This document shows positions 50 through 42,007 of a stretch of 42,057 nt of DNA, piece after piece. Below the pieces are notes generated by a model. It saw nothing but the letters and a program-made list of their open reading frames with translations, ran no database searches and had not been told where the DNA came from. The first letter of the stretch is position 1; each line of letters begins with the position of its first letter. Position numbers and translations under genes: made by a program. The stretch lies in UHGV virus genome UHGV-0106421; one strand, written 5' to 3'. This DNA is from a virus.

Positions 50-1222
50 TCAGGCCTTATGGTGGAAATAATCACTCAGGCGGGAAAACATGCCGCCTTC
101 CCCGACAGATTCCAGGGTAACCAGCGGCCAGTGCGCCACCTGTTTATCACGGTCGTAAAGTTCAATTTCCCCTACCCGCTGATGGGCGCTAATTGGCGCG
201 GTGAGCTCTTTACCATCAAGGGTATATTTGGCTTTGATATGTGGAATTTCGGCTTTCGGTAGCACCATCCAGAACTCTTGTTCCGTTCCCAGGTCGATAT
301 TTTCTTTATCGCCATACCAGATGCGTTCCGTTCCGACCTTTTTCCCACGGTGCAAAATTTGCACCGTAGTAAAGTTTTGTTGCCCCCAACGCAGTAATTT
401 TCTTGCCTCTTCCTCACGACCTTTTGCACTGTCAGCCCCCATTACCACTGCAATGAGACGACGCTGCCCATCTACAGCCGAAGCAATGAGATTAAACCCG
501 GCACCAGAAGTATGACCCGTTTTCAGGCCGTCAACATTCATGGTTTTATCCCACAACAACCCGTTACGGTTTTGCTGGGTGATACCGTTCCAGGTGAGAC
601 TTTTCTCACTGTACATATGATAAAACTCGGGCTCGCCGTGGATGATAGCGCGAGAAAGCACAGCTAAATCATAAGCCGAGCTATGCTGGCCAGGTGCATC
701 CAGACCATGCACTGTTTCAAAATGCGTATCCTTGAGATGCAGCTTCTCGGCATAGTTGTTCATCATTTCAACAAACTGCCGTTGCCCACCGGCAATATAG
801 TCAGCCAGAGCAACACAAGCGTCATTTCCGGAATCCACAATTAAACCACGGCTTAAATCACGTACCGATACGCGATCGCCCTCTTTCAAAAACATCAGTG
901 AAGAACCGACAAACACCGGATTATCTTTCGCCCACGCATCGCGCCCCACGGTGACAATATCGTCTGGCGTAATGCGATGACTATCGATAGCGCGATCCAC
1001 GACATAACCCGTCATCAGCTTTGTCAGGCTGGCGGGATTGCGCTGTTGATGCTCATTACCCGCGGTGAGGATCTGACCGGTGGTGTAATCCATCAATACC
1101 CAGGACCCGGCATGAATCTCTGGAGGCTGAGGTGAAAAAGGAATGTTTTCCGCCGCAAAACCAGACGATAAGTTAAAAACGAACAAAGAAGCAGCAATAA
1201 TAAGACGGCGTTTCAACAGCAA
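50..1222 (-). CDS. dacD: D-alanyl-D-alanine carboxypeptidase DacD (PBP6b), host gene
   Basis: 390-aa ORF with N-terminal signal peptide and class-A PBP motifs SxxK (SLTK), SxN (SGND) and KTG (KTGHT); sequence matches E. coli DacD as recalled. Confidence 0.9.
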   Translation of the reverse strand: MLLKRRLIIAASLFVFNLSSGFAAENIPFSPQPPEIHAGSWVLMDYTTGQILTAGNEHQQRNPASLTKLMTGYVVDRAIDSHRITPDDIVTVGRDAWAKDNPVFVGSSLMFLKEGDRVSVRDLSRGLIVDSGNDACVALADYIAGGQRQFVEMMNNYAEKLHLKDTHFETVHGLDAPGQHSSAYDLAVLSRAIIHGEPEFYHMYSEKSLTWNGITQQNRNGLLWDKTMNVDGLKTGHTSGAGFNLIASAVDGQRRLIAVVMGADSAKGREEEARKLLRWGQQNFTTVQILHRGKKVGTERIWYGDKENIDLGTEQEFWMVLPKAEIPHIKAKYTLDGKELTAPISAHQRVGEIELYDRDKQVAHWPLVTLESVGEGGMFSRLSDYFHHKA

Positions 1223-1424
1223 ACCCTCAGGAGTTTCAAATAGCTGTTCTTTTTACGGAAATACTTATGAACTGGCTGGAATAAAGTGCAAGAAAATGTG
1301 ACTACCCTCTCATTTTTATCTGACATGATCTGTTGCCACTCGCTGCCAAATTGTGGCGCTAAAGCTGATTAGCACGGTGATATTTGATACTCTGGCAGAC
1401 AGCAGAAATAACGGATTTAACCTA

Positions 1425-1487
1425 ATGATGAATGACGGTAAGCAACAATCTACCTTTTTGTTTCACGATTACGCGAAACACCCCTGA
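1425..1487 (+). pseudogene. sbcB: Truncated 5' fragment of exonuclease I gene sbcB, interrupted by prophage insertion
   Basis: ATG ATG AAT GAC GGT AAG ... encodes MMNDGKQQSTFLFHDY, the recalled N-terminus of E. coli SbcB, then diverges and hits a stop after 20 codons; divergent to dacD as in E. coli. Confidence 0.6.
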
Positions 1488-1527
1488 GAAGCGCCATGAA
1501 CAAGGGTTTCATGATTTGTGATTTTAG

Positions 1528-1550
1528 TTTGGTACGCAATTTGGTACACA
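1528..1550. repeat. Two direct copies of TTTGGTAC(G/A)C near the left prophage junction; candidate integrase arm-type sites
   Basis: tttggtacgc at 1528..1537 and tttggtacaca at 1540..1550; the same motifs recur next to int at 42015..42057. Confidence 0.4.
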
Positions 1551-2018
1551 ACACAATTTTCACTTCAGCGGGTAGTCATCAAACTCACCATAACGAGCAT
1601 CGTTAATGATGTATGTGATCACCACAAACATCACATCTGGACTAGTTCCGTTTTCATGCGCAGGTATTTGTTCACGCCTCCCTTTCTGCAAATCCTAAAG
1701 ATGAGATTTTGGGGTTTTGGGATATCTTTTATCCTCAGTTCTCTATCCATTATGCAAACCAGTAATGAACCATCACCATGTGATAGTGAGGCATCTGCCA
1801 CGATAAGCGCAGAGAAATGATGCAGTGGTGGGCGGACTGGATTGATGAAAAGGTGGAGTGATCCACCTTAAACACTATCGAAGAGCACAAAGCCTAGTAA
1901 TCCAGTACAAAGCTATGTGTGCCTCAGTTTTGTCTGAGTGTTCTACTGAAAACATAGTAAAATCGGTAACGGCTGGAAATCATTCAATACTCGCACTATC
2001 GAAAGTTCACCAGCCAAT

Positions 2019-2062
2019 CCGCAGCACGTCCTGCATACGGCGTGTCTGCGGTTTTTATTTTT
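2019..2062 (+). terminator. Putative rho-independent terminator facing rightward from the attL side
   Basis: Stem ccgcagcacg / cgtg(t)ctgcgg with one bulge, followed by tttttattttt; ends just before the tail fiber assembly stop codon. Confidence 0.35.
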
Positions 2063-2065
2063 CGC

Positions 2066-2626
2066 TTACATTGTGTCTGGTTTTGTCGGCCACTGAATAT
2101 CCGGAACCCCGGATGTATTTACTGTTTCCAGTGCATCCAGATAATCCAGCCACAAGTTATATTGCGCAAGCTCATCACCTTTCAGCCGGCCAATGGCAGC
2201 CTTTCCTGCCCACTGATGGCTGTTCATGAATTCATTTGCCTGACTGATTTTTGTTTGTTTTTCCATCTCAGCCAGGGTAATAAGCTCACTCCGGGTATAC
2301 TGTCTTGCAGATACCTTACCGTCCGAATAAACCCACCCGCCATAAATATCAATACCTTCAGGAATACTGGCAACCTCTGCCACACTGCACGATACAGGAA
2401 ACAGCGTGGAAACATCTCTGGTTATTGATTTCACAATACCTTCACTGTCATACATTATCTTGAATGTATCGTCCTTAAATAACTGCTGAGAGGTGTACCA
2501 CTCCCGGCCTTCTTCATCACGCAGAATAATGGCACCGAGTTCTGCCAGTAGCTTTTCTTCATCTGAAACAGGCTCAGAAATAACAAAATTTCTCATATCC
2601 ATCATGATAAACCTACCGTTACCCAT
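2066..2626 (-). CDS. Tail fiber assembly protein (Tfa-like chaperone)
   Basis: 186-aa ORF directly downstream of the tail fiber gene; overall Tfa-like sequence; true start probably an internal Met near 2605. Confidence 0.65.
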   Translation of the reverse strand: MGNGRFIMMDMRNFVISEPVSDEEKLLAELGAIILRDEEGREWYTSQQLFKDDTFKIMYDSEGIVKSITRDVSTLFPVSCSVAEVASIPEGIDIYGGWVYSDGKVSARQYTRSELITLAEMEKQTKISQANEFMNSHQWAGKAAIGRLKGDELAQYNLWLDYLDALETVNTSGVPDIQWPTKPDTM

Positions 2627-3690
2627 TGTGTGCCAATAAGCATCTGAAGCGGACGTACATTTACGCTCTGTGCGTTAGCGCTAAAATTGATACCACGAAC
2701 CATTAATCCGGTATCAATTGAAATAAAATTATTCGACGCATAAAGTGTCGAGACGGCCCCCTCCCGTAGCTTAATAACACCTTTTGCTGAGTCTGCGACA
2801 GTGACTGCAATATTTGCATCACCCCCACCATTGAACATGGCATAACCGCTGGCGTCACCAGAGAGGGAAATCTTTCTCGCTGTTGTAAGTTGTGCAACCG
2901 TTCGTTGAGGATTCCTTGCTGTATAAATTTCAATCCAGTCACTCTCAGTTTTTCCGCTTCTGTTCTTAATAAAGACTCGTGGGTTATCTGTCCCATTCAT
3001 GCTGAGCGCAAAACGGGAAGAGTAGAAACTTGTCCCGGCTAAATTGATATGAACATAATTCTGATAGGGTTCAGGGTTTCCAGGATCACCAATTGGCAAT
3101 GAGTAAACATTGGTAATCTCTGTGTTTTCAGAGGTGGCGCCAACCCCGCCAAAACCAAATGCACCAAGTAACATGAGAGCACCCGCAGTATTATCAAAGA
3201 CATTGGACTGCGCGTTCTTTTTAGCCGCTGTACCGGTTCCCAGATAATTCAACATTGAATCAGCGCTATCGCGTGCAAGTAAACTTCTGGCTGCCGATGT
3301 TAAGTCAGTCAGTGCAACTGTATCCACTCCCGTAAAATACGGGAACTTGTTTGCAGCAGTAGTTAATTGAGCGATAGCGGTAAGAGTTGCATCCAGCGGT
3401 TGGGATGTTTTATTCAGAGCGTTAGTGAATGCCGTAATAAACGCATTTAAATCACCGTTATCGAGTACATCAGCATTATTTTTGTTTGCCATAAACTGGG
3501 CTACAGCTGCTGCTACGAAAGTCGCCTGACGCAGAGCCTTATTAACCTGCGCACTGGAAGCTTTACCTGCGGTGAATCCGGATGCCAGCGCCGGAAGCGA
3601 TTCCCAGTCCGTCTGCGTAGTGACGTTTGCATTCTCTGCTGTCGCAAATGGTTTAAAGTTATTTATTGCCATTAGAGTAAAGTCCCCCAT
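2602..3690 (-). CDS. Tail fiber protein
   Basis: 362-aa Gly/Ala/Thr/Asn-rich ORF between baseplate genes and Tfa; start may be the Met at 3672. Confidence 0.6.
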   Translation of the reverse strand: MGDFTLMAINNFKPFATAENANVTTQTDWESLPALASGFTAGKASSAQVNKALRQATFVAAAVAQFMANKNNADVLDNGDLNAFITAFTNALNKTSQPLDATLTAIAQLTTAANKFPYFTGVDTVALTDLTSAARSLLARDSADSMLNYLGTGTAAKKNAQSNVFDNTAGALMLLGAFGFGGVGATSENTEITNVYSLPIGDPGNPEPYQNYVHINLAGTSFYSSRFALSMNGTDNPRVFIKNRSGKTESDWIEIYTARNPQRTVAQLTTARKISLSGDASGYAMFNGGGDANIAVTVADSAKGVIKLREGAVSTLYASNNFISIDTGLMVRGINFSANAQSVNVRPLQMLIGTQWVTVGLS

Positions 3691-4352
3691 GCTCCAACAT
3701 CGAACCCGCCGATGTATTCGTTATCCATGTCAAATCCAAAGAATTTTGTTCCTTCGGACGGTGTTTCGACTGAGGGTGTTTCAACGCCGCCAGCCCATAC
3801 ACCAGCAGCTTTAACGGTGAGATAACCCTGTTTGATAGCGGCTATCAGTTCGAGTGACACATCAGAAATATCAGTCTCGGGAAAAACCCAGACCGATATC
3901 GTCATGTCCTGGTTATCGACGATCTGCATCTTCAGTCCAGAGCCTGCGGTAGCAGCGTCAAGGATGGGAGGCAGAGAGTCGTTCCGACCATCCCAGTTGT
4001 TGATAGCGATTTTCGCTTTCAGAATGATGCGGTACGTCTCATCACTCAGCGTCGTATAGCCAGAATCAGGATCATATGGCCCTTGCCAGATGCCCTGGTC
4101 ATATCCGAGCCCGTCAGTGTCCCAGCTGAAATAAACGCCGCTAATTGGCTGGCTGACTATACGACTACGCCCAATCCACAGGCCGAGGATATCGAGTTGC
4201 ACGCCAACCGCCGTATCGATATCGAAGGCTGTTACAAGCCCTGACATAGTGCTGGACACATCAATCAGCGGGCGGGTGCTCAGATCTATATGGTCAAAAA
4301 AGAGTGGCTTGGTAGCATGGTAGTTAGTGATCAGTTCGGTGTATTTGCTCAT
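3672..4352 (-). CDS. Baseplate/tail protein (Mu gp48-like)
   Basis: ORF directly after the baseplate J-like gene; ATGA stop/start overlap with it at 4349..4352 if the internal Met is used. Confidence 0.45.
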   Translation of the reverse strand: MSKYTELITNYHATKPLFFDHIDLSTRPLIDVSSTMSGLVTAFDIDTAVGVQLDILGLWIGRSRIVSQPISGVYFSWDTDGLGYDQGIWQGPYDPDSGYTTLSDETYRIILKAKIAINNWDGRNDSLPPILDAATAGSGLKMQIVDNQDMTISVWVFPETDISDVSLELIAAIKQGYLTVKAAGVWAGGVETPSVETPSEGTKFFGFDMDNEYIGGFDVGAWGTLL

Positions 4353-5548: not shown

Positions 5549-5902
5549 TTATGCCTCGCTTGTTACAGTCGTCTGGCCGTAGATTGTGTCAATGGAGGAA
5601 GTGAAGGTGACGCGACGGCTGGTGCCGTCATAATTGGTATCGAAGGAAAGAATCGACAGAACGCCCGGTGTATCCTGTATGCGTTCGCGTATAGCCAGGA
5701 TGTAGACATCTGATCGCTGCTTCCCAAGCACTGACTGAACATACGGCGTGCCTTCCGTCAGATCGAGAAACCACTGACCGCGCCACAGCTCGAAACGGGT
5801 TTTTACGGCCTGGGCGACACATTCCGGACTGTCGATAAGGAAAGTATCGTCACCCTGGCCGAAAGTGTAATCGCCTTCAGTATCTTCGCGACGGTATCGC
5901 AT
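5549..5902 (-). CDS. Baseplate protein (gp25/GPW or Mu gp46-like)
   Basis: 117-aa ORF tightly coupled between the V-like and J-like genes. Confidence 0.45.
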   Translation of the reverse strand: MRYRREDTEGDYTFGQGDDTFLIDSPECVAQAVKTRFELWRGQWFLDLTEGTPYVQSVLGKQRSDVYILAIRERIQDTPGVLSILSFDTNYDGTSRRVTFTSSIDTIYGQTTVTSEA

Positions 5903-6642
5903 TATTGCGGCCCTCCGGTAGTTCCCCCGCCAGTCTGTACTCCGCCATGTTTATGCGTGGCGACACTGATACCAGAAGCTGTTACGTCATTCGTTACCGT
6001 CACCGGCCCAAGCATCGTCGCAGTACCGCCGCTTTCGCCCATTCCCTGAGACAAGTTGCCATTAATCGTTACGTTGCCGTTCAGCGTGATAGTCGGGGAT
6101 GTGATTGTCGTTCCACCTTCAGCCGTAGCTGTAAGCTGGCCCGGTGTTTTAATGGTGATGTTATGTCCTGCGGCGACTTCTACAAACGCCGCACCATCAT
6201 CGGTTCGCAGCTGCGCGGCGCTGGTACTGATACCGCTGATTTTCCGTGCTTGCGACTGTGGGCCAACGATGGCGAACGCATCAGATAAGTCATGCTGGCG
6301 CGGGTCGACGGTCTCCTGCACGCCGCCGCTCTGCCACCAGAAATCGATGCAACGGTCGGCAAAGAGCAGCAGGCACTCGTCGCCTTCTTTAACCGGAAAA
6401 GTCAGCGTACAACCGCCGCCACGCGGGAAGATAACCGGCACATCCACCAGCGGTTTTAATTCGGTGGAGCCATCGCCAACGATACCGCGAAGCGCTACCT
6501 CTACCGTGCAGGTAACAGTATCAGGATCGAACGACTGAATGATGCCGGGCATCGCTACGCGCATCTGGGTAGACACCGAATCGGCAATGGCCTGCGCGGT
6601 CTGCTGCTCACCGCCGATCTGTGATTGAGTTGGAATTGGCAT
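5902..6642 (-). CDS. Baseplate assembly/spike protein (gpV-like)
   Basis: 246-aa ORF with a Gly-rich C-terminus (GGVQTGGGTTGG); position upstream of the W/J-like genes. Confidence 0.55.
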   Translation of the reverse strand: MPIPTQSQIGGEQQTAQAIADSVSTQMRVAMPGIIQSFDPDTVTCTVEVALRGIVGDGSTELKPLVDVPVIFPRGGGCTLTFPVKEGDECLLLFADRCIDFWWQSGGVQETVDPRQHDLSDAFAIVGPQSQARKISGISTSAAQLRTDDGAAFVEVAAGHNITIKTPGQLTATAEGGTTITSPTITLNGNVTINGNLSQGMGESGGTATMLGPVTVTNDVTASGISVATHKHGGVQTGGGTTGGPQ

Positions 6643-6653
6643 AAAAACCCCAT

Positions 6654-6674
6654 AAAAAAACCAGCCGAAGCTGG
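6654..6674 (-). terminator. Putative terminator hairpin between the tail-operon island and the V-like gene
   Basis: ccagc-cgaa-gctgg hairpin (6661..6674) followed on the minus strand by a 7-nt T run (plus-strand A run 6654..6660). Confidence 0.4.
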
Positions 6675-6853
6675 TTTGGTATCAATTACTAAGCTACATC
6701 AGTGTGAAGTAAGGCTTTTCCGCTGCAATGGCACACATTCACAAGGTGTATTAGGATATGTTTGCAACAAGTAAGCATTAAAAATCAATTTCAGCCATGA
6801 AGCCGCCATAGAGTGGACCTGCACCATCGCATTCTTGACTACAGGAGTAACAA

Positions 6854-7144
6854 ATGGGATTTAGATTTCGCAAAAGAATCCGGATTGCGCCCGGACTCGC
6901 GATCAACATTAGCAAAAGCGGAGTAAGCACTTCGATTGGTGGTAAAGGTTCCACCATTAACATCGGGAAAAAAGGCGTAAAGATGACAAATGGCCTTCCC
7001 GGCACGGGGCTGTCGCATACCACTAACCTTTACTCTCCCGGGAAATCGACAGAAAAAAAACAACTTACTCATAAGCAAAAAATAATTAGAAACATCCTGT
7101 TCGTAATTATTGTGTTTATTATAATTAAAGCTCAATATTTTTGA
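6854..7144 (+). CDS. DUF4236-like small protein with C-terminal transmembrane anchor (moron, opposite to the tail operon)
   Basis: 96-aa ORF starting MGFRFRKRIRIAPGLAINISKSG; AGGAG RBS 7 nt upstream; hydrophobic C-terminus IIRNILFVIIVFIII; AT-rich by eye; own terminator downstream. Confidence 0.55.
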   Translation: MGFRFRKRIRIAPGLAINISKSGVSTSIGGKGSTINIGKKGVKMTNGLPGTGLSHTTNLYSPGKSTEKKQLTHKQKIIRNILFVIIVFIIIKAQYF

Positions 7145-7149
7145 CGCAT

Positions 7150-7180
7150 GCCCGCCTATCTGGCGGGCTATTTTACTTTT
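7150..7180 (+). terminator. Rho-independent terminator of the DUF4236-like gene
   Basis: gcccgcc-tatct-ggcgggc hairpin followed by tattttactttt; overlaps the 3' end of the convergent minus-strand gene. Confidence 0.45.
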
Positions 7181-7503
7181 CGGCAGTCGTATGTTGCATA
7201 CTGACGCGGCGAATCCATGCTGGCTTGCAGCCACTGAGCATTCAGGATTGCTTTACCATTACGGCCAATAAACTCCATTCCTACCCATCGCCCTGGTTGA
7301 TTGGTCGCTAAGCGCCATTCAATTTTGACGTTGTTATAATCACCGTCATTTTTAAGAAATGTCACTTTTTGCGATTCAGGTTTAGCTCCGTTTACGCGAG
7401 CGAAACCATCATCAGCCCAATGGATTTTGAAATCACCACACTGAGAATCAGCAATAGCTTGGAAAGAAAATAATGCTGCAATGATAAAAATTACGAGTTT
7501 CAC
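7168..7503 (-). CDS. Small secreted (periplasmic) protein of unknown function, moron inside the tail operon
   Basis: GTG start at 7503 preceded by GAGG; signal peptide (V)KLVIFIIAALFSFQAIA; two Cys in the mature part; AT-rich by eye compared with flanking tail genes. Confidence 0.5.
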   Translation of the reverse strand: MKLVIFIIAALFSFQAIADSQCGDFKIHWADDGFARVNGAKPESQKVTFLKNDGDYNNVKIEWRLATNQPGRWVGMEFIGRNGKAILNAQWLQASMDSPRQYATYDCRKVK

Positions 7504-7513
7504 GTCCCGTACC

Positions 7514-8578
7514 TCAGTAGTTTGTTTTTTGCATAGCACCAGCATTAACTAAATCACGACTGCCACGCGCAAAACACATCAAATCCATGTACCACGCCTG
7601 ACCTCTGGTGTCGCCAGTATAGTCGATAGCTTTGACGATATAAACGCCATCTGTCGCAATGCTGGCAGCCTGTGACGTTGTGCCGGTCAGTGCGCGGTTG
7701 CCGTTCTCTTCCGTTTCAGTGATACGCCCGGGCGACTGTGCGATTTCGCTATTGCCGAGCGCGGCGCGGTACACCGAAGCCTGATCGAGCTGGATAAGAC
7801 CATTAATGCGGATGTTTGGGTTTATCAGGCACCGCACGTTTACGCCGCCGCCCATTGTCTGTTGCGGCATACCGATCAGGCCAGTATTGGCATTCAACAC
7901 AATGGCTTCGTGAATATATTTATCCTCCGGCACCATCTGGACCTGACCATCCACCAGTTGCCATGTCGCTTTGCACTGCGCAGCAATATTATCCATCACG
8001 TTGCGGCTGGATGAGTAAATCGCGCGGCCACGAGGAAACACGGTATCAGGAAAATCGCCGGTAATGCCCTGTGTCACGCCGAACGCGTTGAAATCCTGCA
8101 TCGTCGCCCGGTGCAGATCCGCAACGGTATAGCCAGCGGCAAGCGTGGTGATGGTAGTCGCGTAGAGGAACGCTTCGTGGTTACTGATGGCCTGAATCAG
8201 CACCCAGGAATCGGTGATGTTGTCCTTCCCGGTGACGGTGAAGCGAATATCACCGTCAAATATCAGGCCGTAGTTCTGACCGTTCACCTGCCCTACCTGG
8301 TCTGGTGAAATCTCCAGGGCGACACCAACCTGGCTCGCATCAACATCCGGCGCTATACCGTCATACCCGGCAATGATGCGAATTTTGGCAAACTCCTGCC
8401 CAAGTATCTTGTTCGTGGTATCGGTCGAAAGGTTGTAAATTTTCACGTTCGCCACGCGCGGCCAGCGTGTGTCTGCCCACTCGATCTGGAACGTGACCTT
8501 AAAGTTAGACAGGGAAACGCCCTGCCCGTTCTGGTCCAACAGTTGCAGCTCAAAATGGCGCATCCAGTTAAGAGACAT
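7514..8578 (-). CDS. Tail/baseplate hub-like protein (Mu gpP or P2 gpD-like)
   Basis: 354-aa ORF downstream of the tape measure and small tail genes; assignment by position and size. Confidence 0.4.
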   Translation of the reverse strand: MSLNWMRHFELQLLDQNGQGVSLSNFKVTFQIEWADTRWPRVANVKIYNLSTDTTNKILGQEFAKIRIIAGYDGIAPDVDASQVGVALEISPDQVGQVNGQNYGLIFDGDIRFTVTGKDNITDSWVLIQAISNHEAFLYATTITTLAAGYTVADLHRATMQDFNAFGVTQGITGDFPDTVFPRGRAIYSSSRNVMDNIAAQCKATWQLVDGQVQMVPEDKYIHEAIVLNANTGLIGMPQQTMGGGVNVRCLINPNIRINGLIQLDQASVYRAALGNSEIAQSPGRITETEENGNRALTGTTSQAASIATDGVYIVKAIDYTGDTRGQAWYMDLMCFARGSRDLVNAGAMQKTNY

Positions 8579-25707: not shown

Positions 25708-26226
25708 CTAAATGGCTAATTGCATGTCAAGGCTTTTAACAGCAACATGCTTAACTTTCTCAACACGTTTACGCATTTTGAAAGCATTTTGCATTGGCTG
25801 GTATAAAACAAATAATGACGCTTTCAGGATGTCGTCAATTTCGTTTCTACAGGTTGCCAGTGAAGGTTTTCTCCATCCCTCGCCACCACGTCCACACATC
25901 TTGCGTGGCTTTGCAGTCGCGTGATAGTAGGATGCAATTGCTCGCTTAGATGAACCATGAGCGTAGTAGCTGAGGAGGATGCCAAAGGCTTTCTTGTCAA
26001 TGTACATGACGGAATCGACGACCTGAGAAATCAACATTCCATCATCATCATTGCACATTGGCCTTGTCATAACTCTTCCCGGCTCTACGCTCTCCATGAA
26101 CTTCGCTATTACGCTGCTCATGCGCTTTTCCAGACGACCTGAATAAACCCATGCGCCCCACAGTTCAAGCCAGCCATTCAGCCACTCGTGCTGCTCTTTG
26201 GTGAGGTTTAGTTCTCTTATGCTCAT
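25708..26226 (-). CDS. Q: Late-gene antiterminator Q (non-lambda Q family)
   Basis: 172-aa ORF immediately upstream of the lysis cassette, with WLELWGAW and Cys/Asp-rich motifs seen in Q-like antiterminators of the phage 82/21 type. Confidence 0.55.
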   Translation of the reverse strand: MSIRELNLTKEQHEWLNGWLELWGAWVYSGRLEKRMSSVIAKFMESVEPGRVMTRPMCNDDDGMLISQVVDSVMYIDKKAFGILLSYYAHGSSKRAIASYYHATAKPRKMCGRGGEGWRKPSLATCRNEIDDILKASLFVLYQPMQNAFKMRKRVEKVKHVAVKSLDMQLAI

Positions 26227-40656: not shown

Positions 40657-40848
40657 ATGACCGATACCAGCCTGATTCCTGAGAAAGAAGTGATGAACAA
40701 GCTCGGTGTTTCATCACGTCAGACAATCTGGAACTATACCAAACGGCACGGATTTCCGAAGCCAGTCAGAACCCACCCCAAATCATACCTTCGTGAAGCT
40801 GTTGAGGGGTGGATTCTTAACGGTGGCGTTAATCAGAAATGCTCCTGA
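40657..40848 (+). CDS. AlpA-family excisionase / transcriptional regulator
   Basis: 63-aa ORF with AlpA-like motif (LGVSSRQTIWNYTKRHGFPKPV); adjacent to int. Confidence 0.6.
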   Translation: MTDTSLIPEKEVMNKLGVSSRQTIWNYTKRHGFPKPVRTHPKSYLREAVEGWILNGGVNQKCS

Positions 40849-42007
40849 TGTGCCAGAACAATTTATCAGCGTGAAGCTCATACGCTTTGCGCTGAGCCTC
40901 TATCCAATCGTGTTTATTGTATACTGACATTATCCCGCCAAGTTCATGACCGAGCATTCGCTCAGTAACATGAGGCTCGACATTCATCTCGGACAGACGT
41001 GTAACAAGCGTTCTTCTGAAATCATGTGTTCGCCAGTAACCTAGGTCCACCCCTCCCCTTATTCGATTTACGAATCGGTTGGCTGCAGCGATGCTGATCG
41101 GTTTGTTTATGTCTTCTCCAGGGAAAAGAACATCATTGTACGTTGTCATGGCCTTTTCGAGGAAAGGCTTAATTTGTTCGAAGATTGGACGGCGGATAAC
41201 ATTACCCATCTTGCTATGCTCTTTCGGTACGGTCCATACGTTGTCCAGCAGGTCAAACTCTGTCTTTGTTGCCAGCCTAAGCTCTGAGAGCCTCGCCCCC
41301 CACAGCATAAGCATCTGATGAAGTAGCTTATTTGACGTAGACGCACGGCTTCTTTCAATAGCAAGCCAAATCTTAGCCAGTTCGTGATACGACAGTACCC
41401 GATCCCCTACCTCAGCGCGGGAGCCGAAGTCCCTTGGCTGGATGCTCATAATTGCGCAACTATCTATCAACTGACGCCGCATGCACCAACTTATTGCTGA
41501 TCTTAGTTGACTTAGCACCTGCCTTGCTCGGCGTGGATTATCTCTTTCTTCTTCGGTAAGCAGGTCAACCCATTGCTTAACCGTGATAGAAGATGCCGGA
41601 CGATTAGGAAATGCGTCATGCATGCGCTTCATAACCGTTGATCGGTAAAGTGCCTGGGTCTTTTCTCTGAGAGTTGTAGAGACGTAGTTGTCGAACCAGT
41701 AGTCGAGACACTGGGCGACCGTCATGGAGTTCTCCACCTTCTCTTCAAAATAAGTGCGTGGATCCGTTCCTGAGAAATAGAGCTTTCGCAAGTCAGCAGT
41801 GATCTGTCTGGCATCCTTCAAAGACAGGGATGGGTATCGACCAAGCCCAAGTCGATTAGGCTTGCCATGCCAGCGATAGCGGTACTGGAACTGGATGACC
41901 CCCTTCGGTGAAATTCGCACGCTGAGGCCATCTGCATCAGCCACTTCTTGTGGGCCCGAATATGGTTTACCATAAATAGTACGAAGTTTTGTGTCGCTTA
42001 TAGCCAT
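40829..42007 (-). CDS. int: Tyrosine integrase
   Basis: 392-aa ORF with C-terminal catalytic region (HDFRRT, LGH, SVYNKH); at the prophage edge beside arm-type repeats. Confidence 0.85.
   Translation of the reverse strand: MAISDTKLRTIYGKPYSGPQEVADADGLSVRISPKGVIQFQYRYRWHGKPNRLGLGRYPSLSLKDARQITADLRKLYFSGTDPRTYFEEKVENSMTVAQCLDYWFDNYVSTTLREKTQALYRSTVMKRMHDAFPNRPASSITVKQWVDLLTEEERDNPRRARQVLSQLRSAISWCMRRQLIDSCAIMSIQPRDFGSRAEVGDRVLSYHELAKIWLAIERSRASTSNKLLHQMLMLWGARLSELRLATKTEFDLLDNVWTVPKEHSKMGNVIRRPIFEQIKPFLEKAMTTYNDVLFPGEDINKPISIAAANRFVNRIRGGVDLGYWRTHDFRRTLVTRLSEMNVEPHVTERMLGHELGGIMSVYNKHDWIEAQRKAYELHADKLFWHIRSISD

Follow-up and report, generated by a model that had tools for sequence, protein, structure and literature searches.

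What are two AT-rich genes for a secreted and a membrane protein doing inside a phage tail operon, and what could they contribute to the phage or its lysogen? The question arises in UHGV virus genome UHGV-0106421, a stretch of 42,057 nucleotides (nt; hereafter the window), in which 0.9 kb of AT-rich DNA is wedged between the genes for the baseplate hub and the central spike (V). One gene of this interval, called sp for secreted protein, is read with the tail genes on the minus strand, and the other, encoding a membrane protein with a DUF4236 domain, is convergent to them. We consider it very probable that the interval is an accessory ("moron") locus of a SEN34-like prophage with two units: sp, which would be read within the late tail operon and yield a Sec-exported barrel that is no part of the virion, and a variable slot, which here would hold the convergent DUF4236 gene with its own terminator. 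The fuller explanation, which joins roles for the products to this architecture, we regard as reasonably probable. The features concerned are the following:

7514..8578, minus strand: baseplate hub gene, 354 amino acids (aa), Pfam E217_GP41 (E=2.1e-6); upstream boundary
7168..7503, minus strand: sp, 111 aa, GTG start; member of PHROG 3443
7150..7180, plus strand: intrinsic terminator serving the DUF4236 gene, with a convergent stop codon on either side
6854..7144, plus strand: DUF4236 gene, predicted tail-anchored membrane protein of 96 aa (PF14020), convergent to the tail operon
6678..6853, plus strand: AT-rich non-coding leader of the DUF4236 gene, AGGAG at 6843-6847
6650..6677, minus strand: intrinsic terminator on the tail strand before V; downstream edge of the variable slot
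5902..6642, minus strand: central spike gene V, 246 aa, with Phage_base_V N-domain (E=1.7e-41) and Apex motif (Pfam)
25708..26226, minus strand: Q-type late antiterminator gene (PF06530, E=1.1e-25), upstream of holin, Rz and the minus-strand late genes

An earlier reading of the bare sequence, the original prediction, had described both open reading frames (ORFs), both terminator hairpins and the AT-richness, and all of these are present. GC content is 0.412 in the intergenic part (6643-6853), 0.402 in the DUF4236 gene and 0.426 in sp, that is, 0.40-0.43 against 0.54-0.57 in the flanks (hub 0.537, V 0.572), and GC at third codon positions (GC3) is 0.37-0.42 in the DUF4236/sp stretch versus 0.59-0.64 in the flanks. 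This dip in GC and GC3 bears out the idea of compositionally foreign accessory DNA within the tail operon. The predicted ribosome-binding site (RBS) AGGAG lies 6 nt ahead of the ATG of the DUF4236 gene, and the GTG start of sp is preceded by the predicted GAGG (7515-7512), which overlaps the hub stop codon. That start agrees with the homologues and with the Prokaryotic Genome Annotation Pipeline (PGAP), which calls the same 336-nt coding sequence (WP_040062296.1) in a 97%-identical E. coli prophage and annotates the DUF4236 coding sequence there as well; a 125-aa version of sp from an ATG at 7545 was ruled out by homologue alignment and the same annotation. The features are no chance pattern, since both ORFs belong to families with many homologues and the hairpin next to V recurs with stem changes that preserve pairing.

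The secreted protein behind the hub gene

Our survey took 79 hub-encoding loci from a collection with a single genome for each bacterial species and searched them with hub, sp, DUF4236 and V profiles; species-level counts rest on the 70 loci complete from hub to V. The hub position was the same in all relatives as in the window, and the loci showed four arrangements:

hub, sp, cargo, V: 45/70 loci, the arrangement of the window
hub, sp, V: 8/70 loci, without cargo
hub, other insert, V: 9/70 loci, no intact sp, with sp remnants in four
hub joined straight to V: 8/70 loci, with a hub 42-50% identical to that of the window

The collinear tails without the island that the original prediction had suggested looking for therefore exist, as the insert is absent in 8 of 70 loci. 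It had also stated that conservation of the secreted protein in all related tails would speak against its proposal; an intact sp directly behind hub in 53/70 loci (76%) comes near to this, and in the other 17 collinear loci the gene is absent or broken. The idea of one two-gene island had to be given up, as the two genes are independent units that each occur without the other in relatives: sp stands without DUF4236 in 52 of the 53 species-level loci, and DUF4236 without sp in the locus L021 and in the lambda-like tails L016 and L019. We had considered an obligate pair because the convergent arrangement recurs in Klebsiella, Hafnia, Pluralibacter and E. coli, and rejected it on these separate occurrences.

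In every relative initially examined, sp lies directly 3' of hub, down to an sp identity of 32-47%, and hub stop codon and sp start often share 1-4 nt. Six of the hub-sp-V loci have the sp stop, the RBS and the V start inside about 20 nt and no terminator. Given the fixed position, the overlap and these six loci, sp appears to behave as a conserved late-operon gene and not as an essential structural one. The eight collinear tails without it, together with the other losses, indicate that sp is dispensable for this type of tail.

The sp product carries a Sec-type signal peptide that is predicted to be cleaved behind AIA, at residue 19, ahead of DSQCG. Signal peptide, small-x-small (AxA) motif, Cys22 and Cys107 are kept across 40 aligned homologues, the two cysteines being invariant and placed at opposite ends of the mature chain. 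Modelling gives an eight-stranded beta-barrel (predicted local distance difference test, pLDDT, 84-93) of avidin/lipocalin-like, calycin-like appearance, with avidins and uncharacterised barrels as its best matches in fold. The protein is thus predicted to be exported via Sec and to form a disulfide-closed barrel in the periplasm.

The protein belongs to a narrow family, PHROG 3443, whose profile it matches over its full length (E=2.2e-44, residues 3-111 against positions 6-114 of 115); the family has no assigned function, Pfam model or NCBIfam hidden Markov model in the release searched. In RefSeq, a 63%-identical homologue from this position goes by the name 'STY1065/STY2022 family phage-derived protein', and a literature search on that family returned nothing. 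Searches of sp gave no match in Pfam, NCBIfam (release 20) or PADLOC, no sequence match to Spackle or to the MliC/PliC and Ivy families, among which it cannot be placed, and no sequence similarity to solved structures. A word-indexed search yielded 89 clusters, those named all from Enterobacterales. An exhaustive profile search of 1.84 billion proteins gave 65 representatives, including two lipoprotein-fused forms; its long repetitive matches, adhesin and SH3 repeat proteins, were discarded as spurious. In the fused forms (L105:5001-5879 and L106:4625-5503) the sp domain is the C-terminal part of a 292-aa lipoprotein, behind an uncharacterised domain of about 190 aa, and the gene again directly follows hub.

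Some relatives depart from the single-copy arrangement. Serratia aquatilis (L065:5092-7745) carries four intact sp paralogs and one frameshifted copy in tandem downstream of hub; each has the signal peptide and the cysteine pair, the N-terminal halves differing and the C-terminal halves being alike, and the same locus has, at 6005-6100, a second copy of a short piece of the hub 3' end. L021 has an unrelated 158-aa secreted protein in place of sp. Some Pantoea prophage copies (L008:6629-6706, L009:732-1879) contain an insertion sequence (IS) element, with HTH_Tnp_1 and rve transposase, right after sp, which suggests that the site tolerates insertions.

Identity of sp among relatives is 34-59%, against 45-82% for other tail genes, indicating faster divergence. 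Two E. coli loci (L005 and L006) match the window at 98-99% over the first 290 aa of the hub and at 97% in the sheath initiator, whereas the last 60 hub residues are 78-82%, sp 63-71% and V 71-76% identical, so that these three were exchanged together across a breakpoint inside the hub gene. The joint exchange implies that the insert, including its cargo, moves with the hub C-terminus and the spike as one block. In phage Mu the hub C-terminus and the spike contact each other (PMC11915804).

This block exchange, the strict synteny with hub, the overlap with its stop codon, the terminator-free packing in six loci and the presence in 76% of relatives would all suit a component of tail assembly or of the tail tip, perhaps a chaperone for the baseplate or a tip protein that inserts into the membrane and keeps its N-terminus uncleaved. 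We nevertheless think this very improbable. A component of the tail should be found in every such tail, and of the 17 loci without an intact copy eight have no gene there at all and nine have no intact sp. The n, h and c regions of a Sec signal, the AxA motif and the invariant cysteine pair point to the oxidising periplasm, and replacement by an unrelated secreted protein in L021, the tandem paralogs, the lipoprotein-fused forms and a divergence faster than that of structural genes all speak against a structural part. The virion structures of the Pseudomonas phages E217 and Pa193, which have the same hub type, do not include anything encoded by the gene lying between hub and tail tip.

The variable slot and the DUF4236 protein

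The second unit, the slot from the end of sp to the terminator before V, is hypervariable and AT-rich, with a GC content of 0.28-0.46 that is below that of hub in all loci surveyed. Across the 54 species-level cargo-bearing loci we called 108 cargo ORFs, 91 of them on the tail strand and 53 with a transmembrane (TM)-like segment. Many of the products are lipoproteins or secreted proteins without defence annotation, and the contents differ from relative to relative:

Omnitron: 128-aa secreted protein
L004: 106-aa secreted protein
L005: Phd/Doc
L006: three-TM protein and a 70-aa protein
L007: HEPN-like pair
L011: HExxH protein
Mulock and SEN34: N-terminally anchored proteins

Pfam matches of the cargo include YafO, Phd/Doc, HicB, HEPN, Mrr nucleases, T5orf172/MUG113 and DUF2335, among others, and in one relative a superinfection immunity protein of the T4 Imm type (Imm_superinfect, PF14373). 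PADLOC found PD-Lambda-1 (E=5e-83), PDC-S57, PDC-S42, PDC-S02 and mREase_IV. PD-Lambda-1, since renamed SNIPE, is a nuclease bound to the membrane; it cuts the DNA of a phage while this is being injected (PMC13190303).

The slot thus combines a fixed site, diverse cargo and validated systems, as defence hotspots do. It resembles the prophage and satellite hotspots of Rousset et al. 2022 (the P2/P4 type) and Brenes and Laub 2025 (the defence arsenal of E. coli prophages) in its fixed position between core genes, its diverse AT-rich cargo and its validated systems, here PD-Lambda-1/SNIPE, toxin-antitoxin modules and an Mrr-type nuclease. It differs from them in belonging to a SEN34-like lineage, in lying inside a baseplate operon and in having a conserved secreted protein at its upstream edge. 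Our literature search found no description of a hotspot between hub and spike or of a role for either protein, and the slot is a previously undescribed accessory hotspot of common temperate Enterobacterales myoviruses.

Two cassettes recur in the slot. Nine loci (L036, L039, L047, L060, L061, L067, L071, L074 and L098), from Photorhabdus, Rahnella and other Enterobacterales prophages, share a two-gene cassette of a protein of about 143-164 aa and a glycine-rich protein of about 108-180 aa with a C-terminal TM helix. Another pair, of about 243-273 aa and 123-142 aa, occupies L007:6433-7577, L035, L046, L049, L053, L055 and L056, and L040 has a related larger protein without the small partner. 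The smaller protein has the motif SRAYY...YH, which resembles the HEPN motif R-x(4-6)-H, and the pair is probably a toxin-antitoxin or defence module.

The cargo of the window itself is the DUF4236 gene. As the original prediction had it, the product is a DUF4236 protein with a C-terminal anchor: PF14020 matches its first 55 residues (model positions 1-54 of 55; E=1.8e-20, 73.6 bits against a cut-off of 27), and residues 73-96, at the extreme C-terminus, are hydrophobic (Kyte-Doolittle 2.05). An N-terminal beta-meander, a polar linker and a TM helix are common to 43 short homologues in our alignment, and the AlphaFold2 model (pLDDT 80.5) has six strands and a helix at 73-95. As it has no signal peptide and the topology of a tail anchor, the DUF4236 domain is predicted to lie in the cytoplasm with the C-terminal helix in the inner membrane. 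The earlier picture of a membrane protein paired with a periplasmic one therefore stands as far as one product is exported and one membrane-bound, and fails in that the DUF4236 domain would not face the periplasm. Pfam gave PF14020 only, and PADLOC and NCBIfam no functional match; by sequence the protein is not in the T4 Imm (PF14373), HK97 gp15 or P22 SieA families. The Pfam family is uncharacterised, with a single passing mention found in the literature.

DUF4236 was found in only 1/70 species-level loci. Of the E. coli genomes with such a tail, 42 matched, and 19 of the 40 listed have DUF4236, the other 21 having no DUF4236 annotation and other cargo instead. Homologues at 51-69% identity hold the same place and convergent orientation in Klebsiella, Hafnia, Pluralibacter and E. 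coli phages, and DUF4236 has the same slot and orientation in Serratia phages too. It also occurs in other tails. A short DUF4236 gene lies in lambda-like tail-tip clusters between the tape-measure gene and gpM in a siphovirus of Leclercia (L016:5001-6175) and between gpK and gpJ in P. syringae B728a (L019:4529-5294), and in all, three types of tail have DUF4236 proteins in their tail-tip clusters. The Leclercia gene converges on one for a 130-aa N-terminally anchored protein, mirroring the layout of the window. DUF4236 genes of Acinetobacter and Pasteurella phages lie in records whose annotation is too poor for their position to be read. Both the short tail-anchored form and its recurrence in tail-tip clusters are new observations.

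Such a protein might also be a small membrane toxin or abortive-infection effector, with an oligomerising meander, that is held in check by convergent late transcription and does not block entry at all. The gene is convergent to the late operon, whose transcription would be antisense to it; its product has a very basic N-terminus and, besides the tail anchor, a beta-meander that is amphipathic; and toxin-antitoxin modules are frequent in the slot. No ORF for a partner antitoxin was found in the slot, however, PADLOC gave no match, and longer DUF4236 proteins carry added SH3b domains, which suggests a structural or anchoring role. We give this alternative little credence.

The cargo bears equally on the possibility that sp, DUF4236 or both are lysogenic-conversion factors serving host physiology, for instance in ligand binding, tolerance of envelope stress or virulence, comparable to lambda Bor. 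The many slot lipoproteins and secreted proteins without defence annotation fit this, as do the avidin/lipocalin-like fold of sp, suggestive of a pocket for a small ligand, and the occurrence of the family in prophages of Enterobacterales, a group including pathogens. Against it, the recognisable cargo is mostly anti-phage and toxin-antitoxin, and the tight coupling of sp to a late tail operon would be unusual for a conversion gene; we judge conversion improbable.

Terminators and late transcription

The two hairpins differ in the strand that they can stop. The plus-strand hairpin (7150-7168) has seven G-C pairs followed by TATTTTACTT, with a folding energy of -16.7 kcal/mol (z=-3.0), and its T run is on the plus, DUF4236, strand only; the same holds in L013, L020 and L022. 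It should therefore end the DUF4236 transcript and not efficiently stop transcription of the tail operon. The minus-strand hairpin (6677-6658), predicted originally between the island and V and confirmed here, has a T run ending 15 nt ahead of the V start codon. All of the five close relatives examined have it, irrespective of cargo and with the T run conserved, and the stem variants CCAGC/GCTGG, GCCGC/GCGGC and CCCGC/GCGGG keep the pairing.

Homology among relatives breaks within this V-proximal hairpin. A hairpin of this kind, with a T run, precedes V in 36/54 cargo-bearing loci (31/45 with hub-sp-cargo-V and 5/9 with another insert), and in cargo-free ones it was found in 1/8 hub-sp-V and 3/8 insert-free loci. 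Three "empty" sites with only about 60-70 nt between hub and V (L090, L091 and L099) have an ACCCGC-loop-GCGGGT hairpin and T run just upstream of V. At empty sites the hairpin may have been left behind when cargo was lost, or may serve recombination as a landing pad in the exchange of cargo.

The leader at 6678..6853 presumably holds the promoter of the DUF4236 gene, and a motif in it, TTGACTACAGGAG, is common to the cassettes of L013, L022 and L024. In lambda, Q-modified polymerase ignores terminators throughout the late operon. The window has a Q gene, and on the lambda model this would explain how a terminator before V and the downstream baseplate genes is tolerated: during lytic growth the Q-modified polymerase would read through both hairpins to V and the genes beyond, producing transcripts antisense to DUF4236.

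The window is almost wholly prophage, with an integrase (40829-42007), a CI-like S24 repressor, RusA, Q, holin S, Rz and minus-strand late genes. The tail set comprises a tape-measure protein with an SLT domain, a Dit-like protein, plug, hub, V, sheath initiator and J, and from these genes the tail is assigned to the E217/Pam3 simple-baseplate type. The original description as Mu-like is right only loosely, as the phage is a myovirus of the SEN34 kind that combines lambda-type regulation with a simple baseplate of the type just named. Related phages are, among others, Omnitron of Citrobacter (95% DNA identity), SEN34 of Salmonella, from the genus Brunovirus, and Mulock and RCIP0034 of Klebsiella. 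A published account of SEN34, which contains no virion proteomics, gives it as a myovirus regulated like lambda (PMC5261728). At the left end (50-1222) the window has a host-type D-alanyl-D-alanine carboxypeptidase gene (PBP5/6-like), which places the prophage boundary near 1.2-2 kb. The stretch 1200-3700 is AT-rich as well (GC 0.41-0.47) and holds a 362-aa ORF without Pfam match and several plus-strand ORFs (1518-2428).

Possible roles at the lysogen envelope

Phage morons such as HK97 gp15 and lambda bor and lom are the nearest precedents for the locus. HK97 gp15 is an inner-membrane protein that blocks DNA entry. As in those morons, DNA of deviant composition lies between essential late genes and encodes envelope proteins, has its own terminator, which would be tolerated through late antitermination, and is present in some relatives and absent from others, DUF4236 being replaced in 69/70 species-level loci and the insert absent in 8. 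The differences are that the site here is between hub and spike in a myovirus baseplate cluster, that our scan found no promoter, and that neither sp nor DUF4236 has a sequence relation to gp15, Bor or Lom. Measured against the moron definition of Juhala/Hendrix (PMC3594210), sp fits poorly because it is almost fixed in its lineage and operonic. HK97 gp15 is described as a tail-operon moron whose product acts in superinfection exclusion (Cumby 2012).

We propose that both products might protect the envelope of the lysogen from incoming phages, sp by acting in the periplasm against the complex at the tail tip, or against the activity with which this degrades the cell wall, and DUF4236 by acting at the inner membrane during DNA entry. 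From its context such an envelope-acting role, which the original prediction had pictured as receptor masking or superinfection exclusion, is plausible, and that one or other of the two proteins, or both, works against phages or in exclusion we rate as a real possibility, somewhat short of even. The case for the slot rests on the entry-stage defence cargo (SNIPE and the T4 Imm family), the recurrence of DUF4236 in tail-tip clusters and the precedents, and that for sp on its predicted periplasmic location, fast divergence, allele exchange with the spike and tandem paralog array. The exclusion genes T5 llp and cor are likewise placed beside the tail genes to which they relate.

Several points weigh against this proposal. 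PADLOC, NCBIfam and Pfam give no functional match for either protein, and the fold matches of sp are generic. Upstream of DUF4236 the promoter scan detected no sigma-70-like site on the plus strand, and for sp a weak site only, inside the hub gene at 7644-7616. Packed so tightly into the operon, sp is likely to be expressed late, a timing that suits a factor made in lytic growth better than one that shields a lysogen. A search for partners of sp by co-divergence was non-diagnostic: r was 0.67 with hub, 0.56 with Dit, 0.43 with V and 0.23 with the tape-measure C-terminus, and structural tail genes correlate more strongly with each other than with sp. As the correlation drops with physical distance, linkage suffices to explain it, and no partner is identified.

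The low value for the tape-measure C-terminus also bears on a more specific idea, that sp is a Spackle- or PliC-like periplasmic inhibitor of the tape-measure lytic transglycosylase of incoming related phages. T4 Spackle is a periplasmic inhibitor of the gp5 tail lysozyme; it is helical and an early gene product. Like it, sp is small, has a signal peptide and belongs to a phage whose tail carries a cell-wall-degrading domain. It differs in lacking sequence similarity, in its all-beta fold and in its place in a late operon. A tape-measure SLT domain is encoded beside the module in most relatives examined, the window protein showing an SLT-like motif by eye, and the tandem paralogs resemble immunity-gene arrays. 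The absence of sequence matches to MliC/PliC, Ivy and Spackle, best fold matches among avidins and uncharacterised barrels instead of inhibitors, and the poor correlation with the tape-measure C-terminus make inhibition of this kind an outside chance. Judged by sequence, sp and DUF4236 belong to no known exclusion or inhibitor family.

Returning to envelope protection, a bolder version of it would make sp the founder of a new periplasmic anti-phage family tied to tail-tip genes, and DUF4236 a second, widespread moron family of tail clusters that acts at the inner membrane during DNA entry. The sp barrel would intercept the hub/spike/tape-measure complex of incoming SEN34-type tails, or its wall-degrading domain, and tandem paralogs would broaden the range of tails recognised. 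We offer this joint version tentatively and regard it as rather unlikely to hold in full.

The slot between hub and spike is a new place to look for defence genes. With SNIPE/PD-Lambda-1 and toxin-antitoxin modules already known from it, the many secreted and membrane proteins that it encodes without annotation make good candidates for new defences at the stage of entry. Within the locus, sp represents a narrow family with the unusual pattern of being nearly fixed yet dispensable, and DUF4236 a very widespread phage domain that appears here repeatedly in tail-tip clusters. If either protein blocks infection, it would add a periplasmic or inner-membrane mechanism of exclusion; if neither does, the locus would be an ordinary moron site. 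What the locus offers is two well-defined candidate families and a slot whose cargo merits mining.

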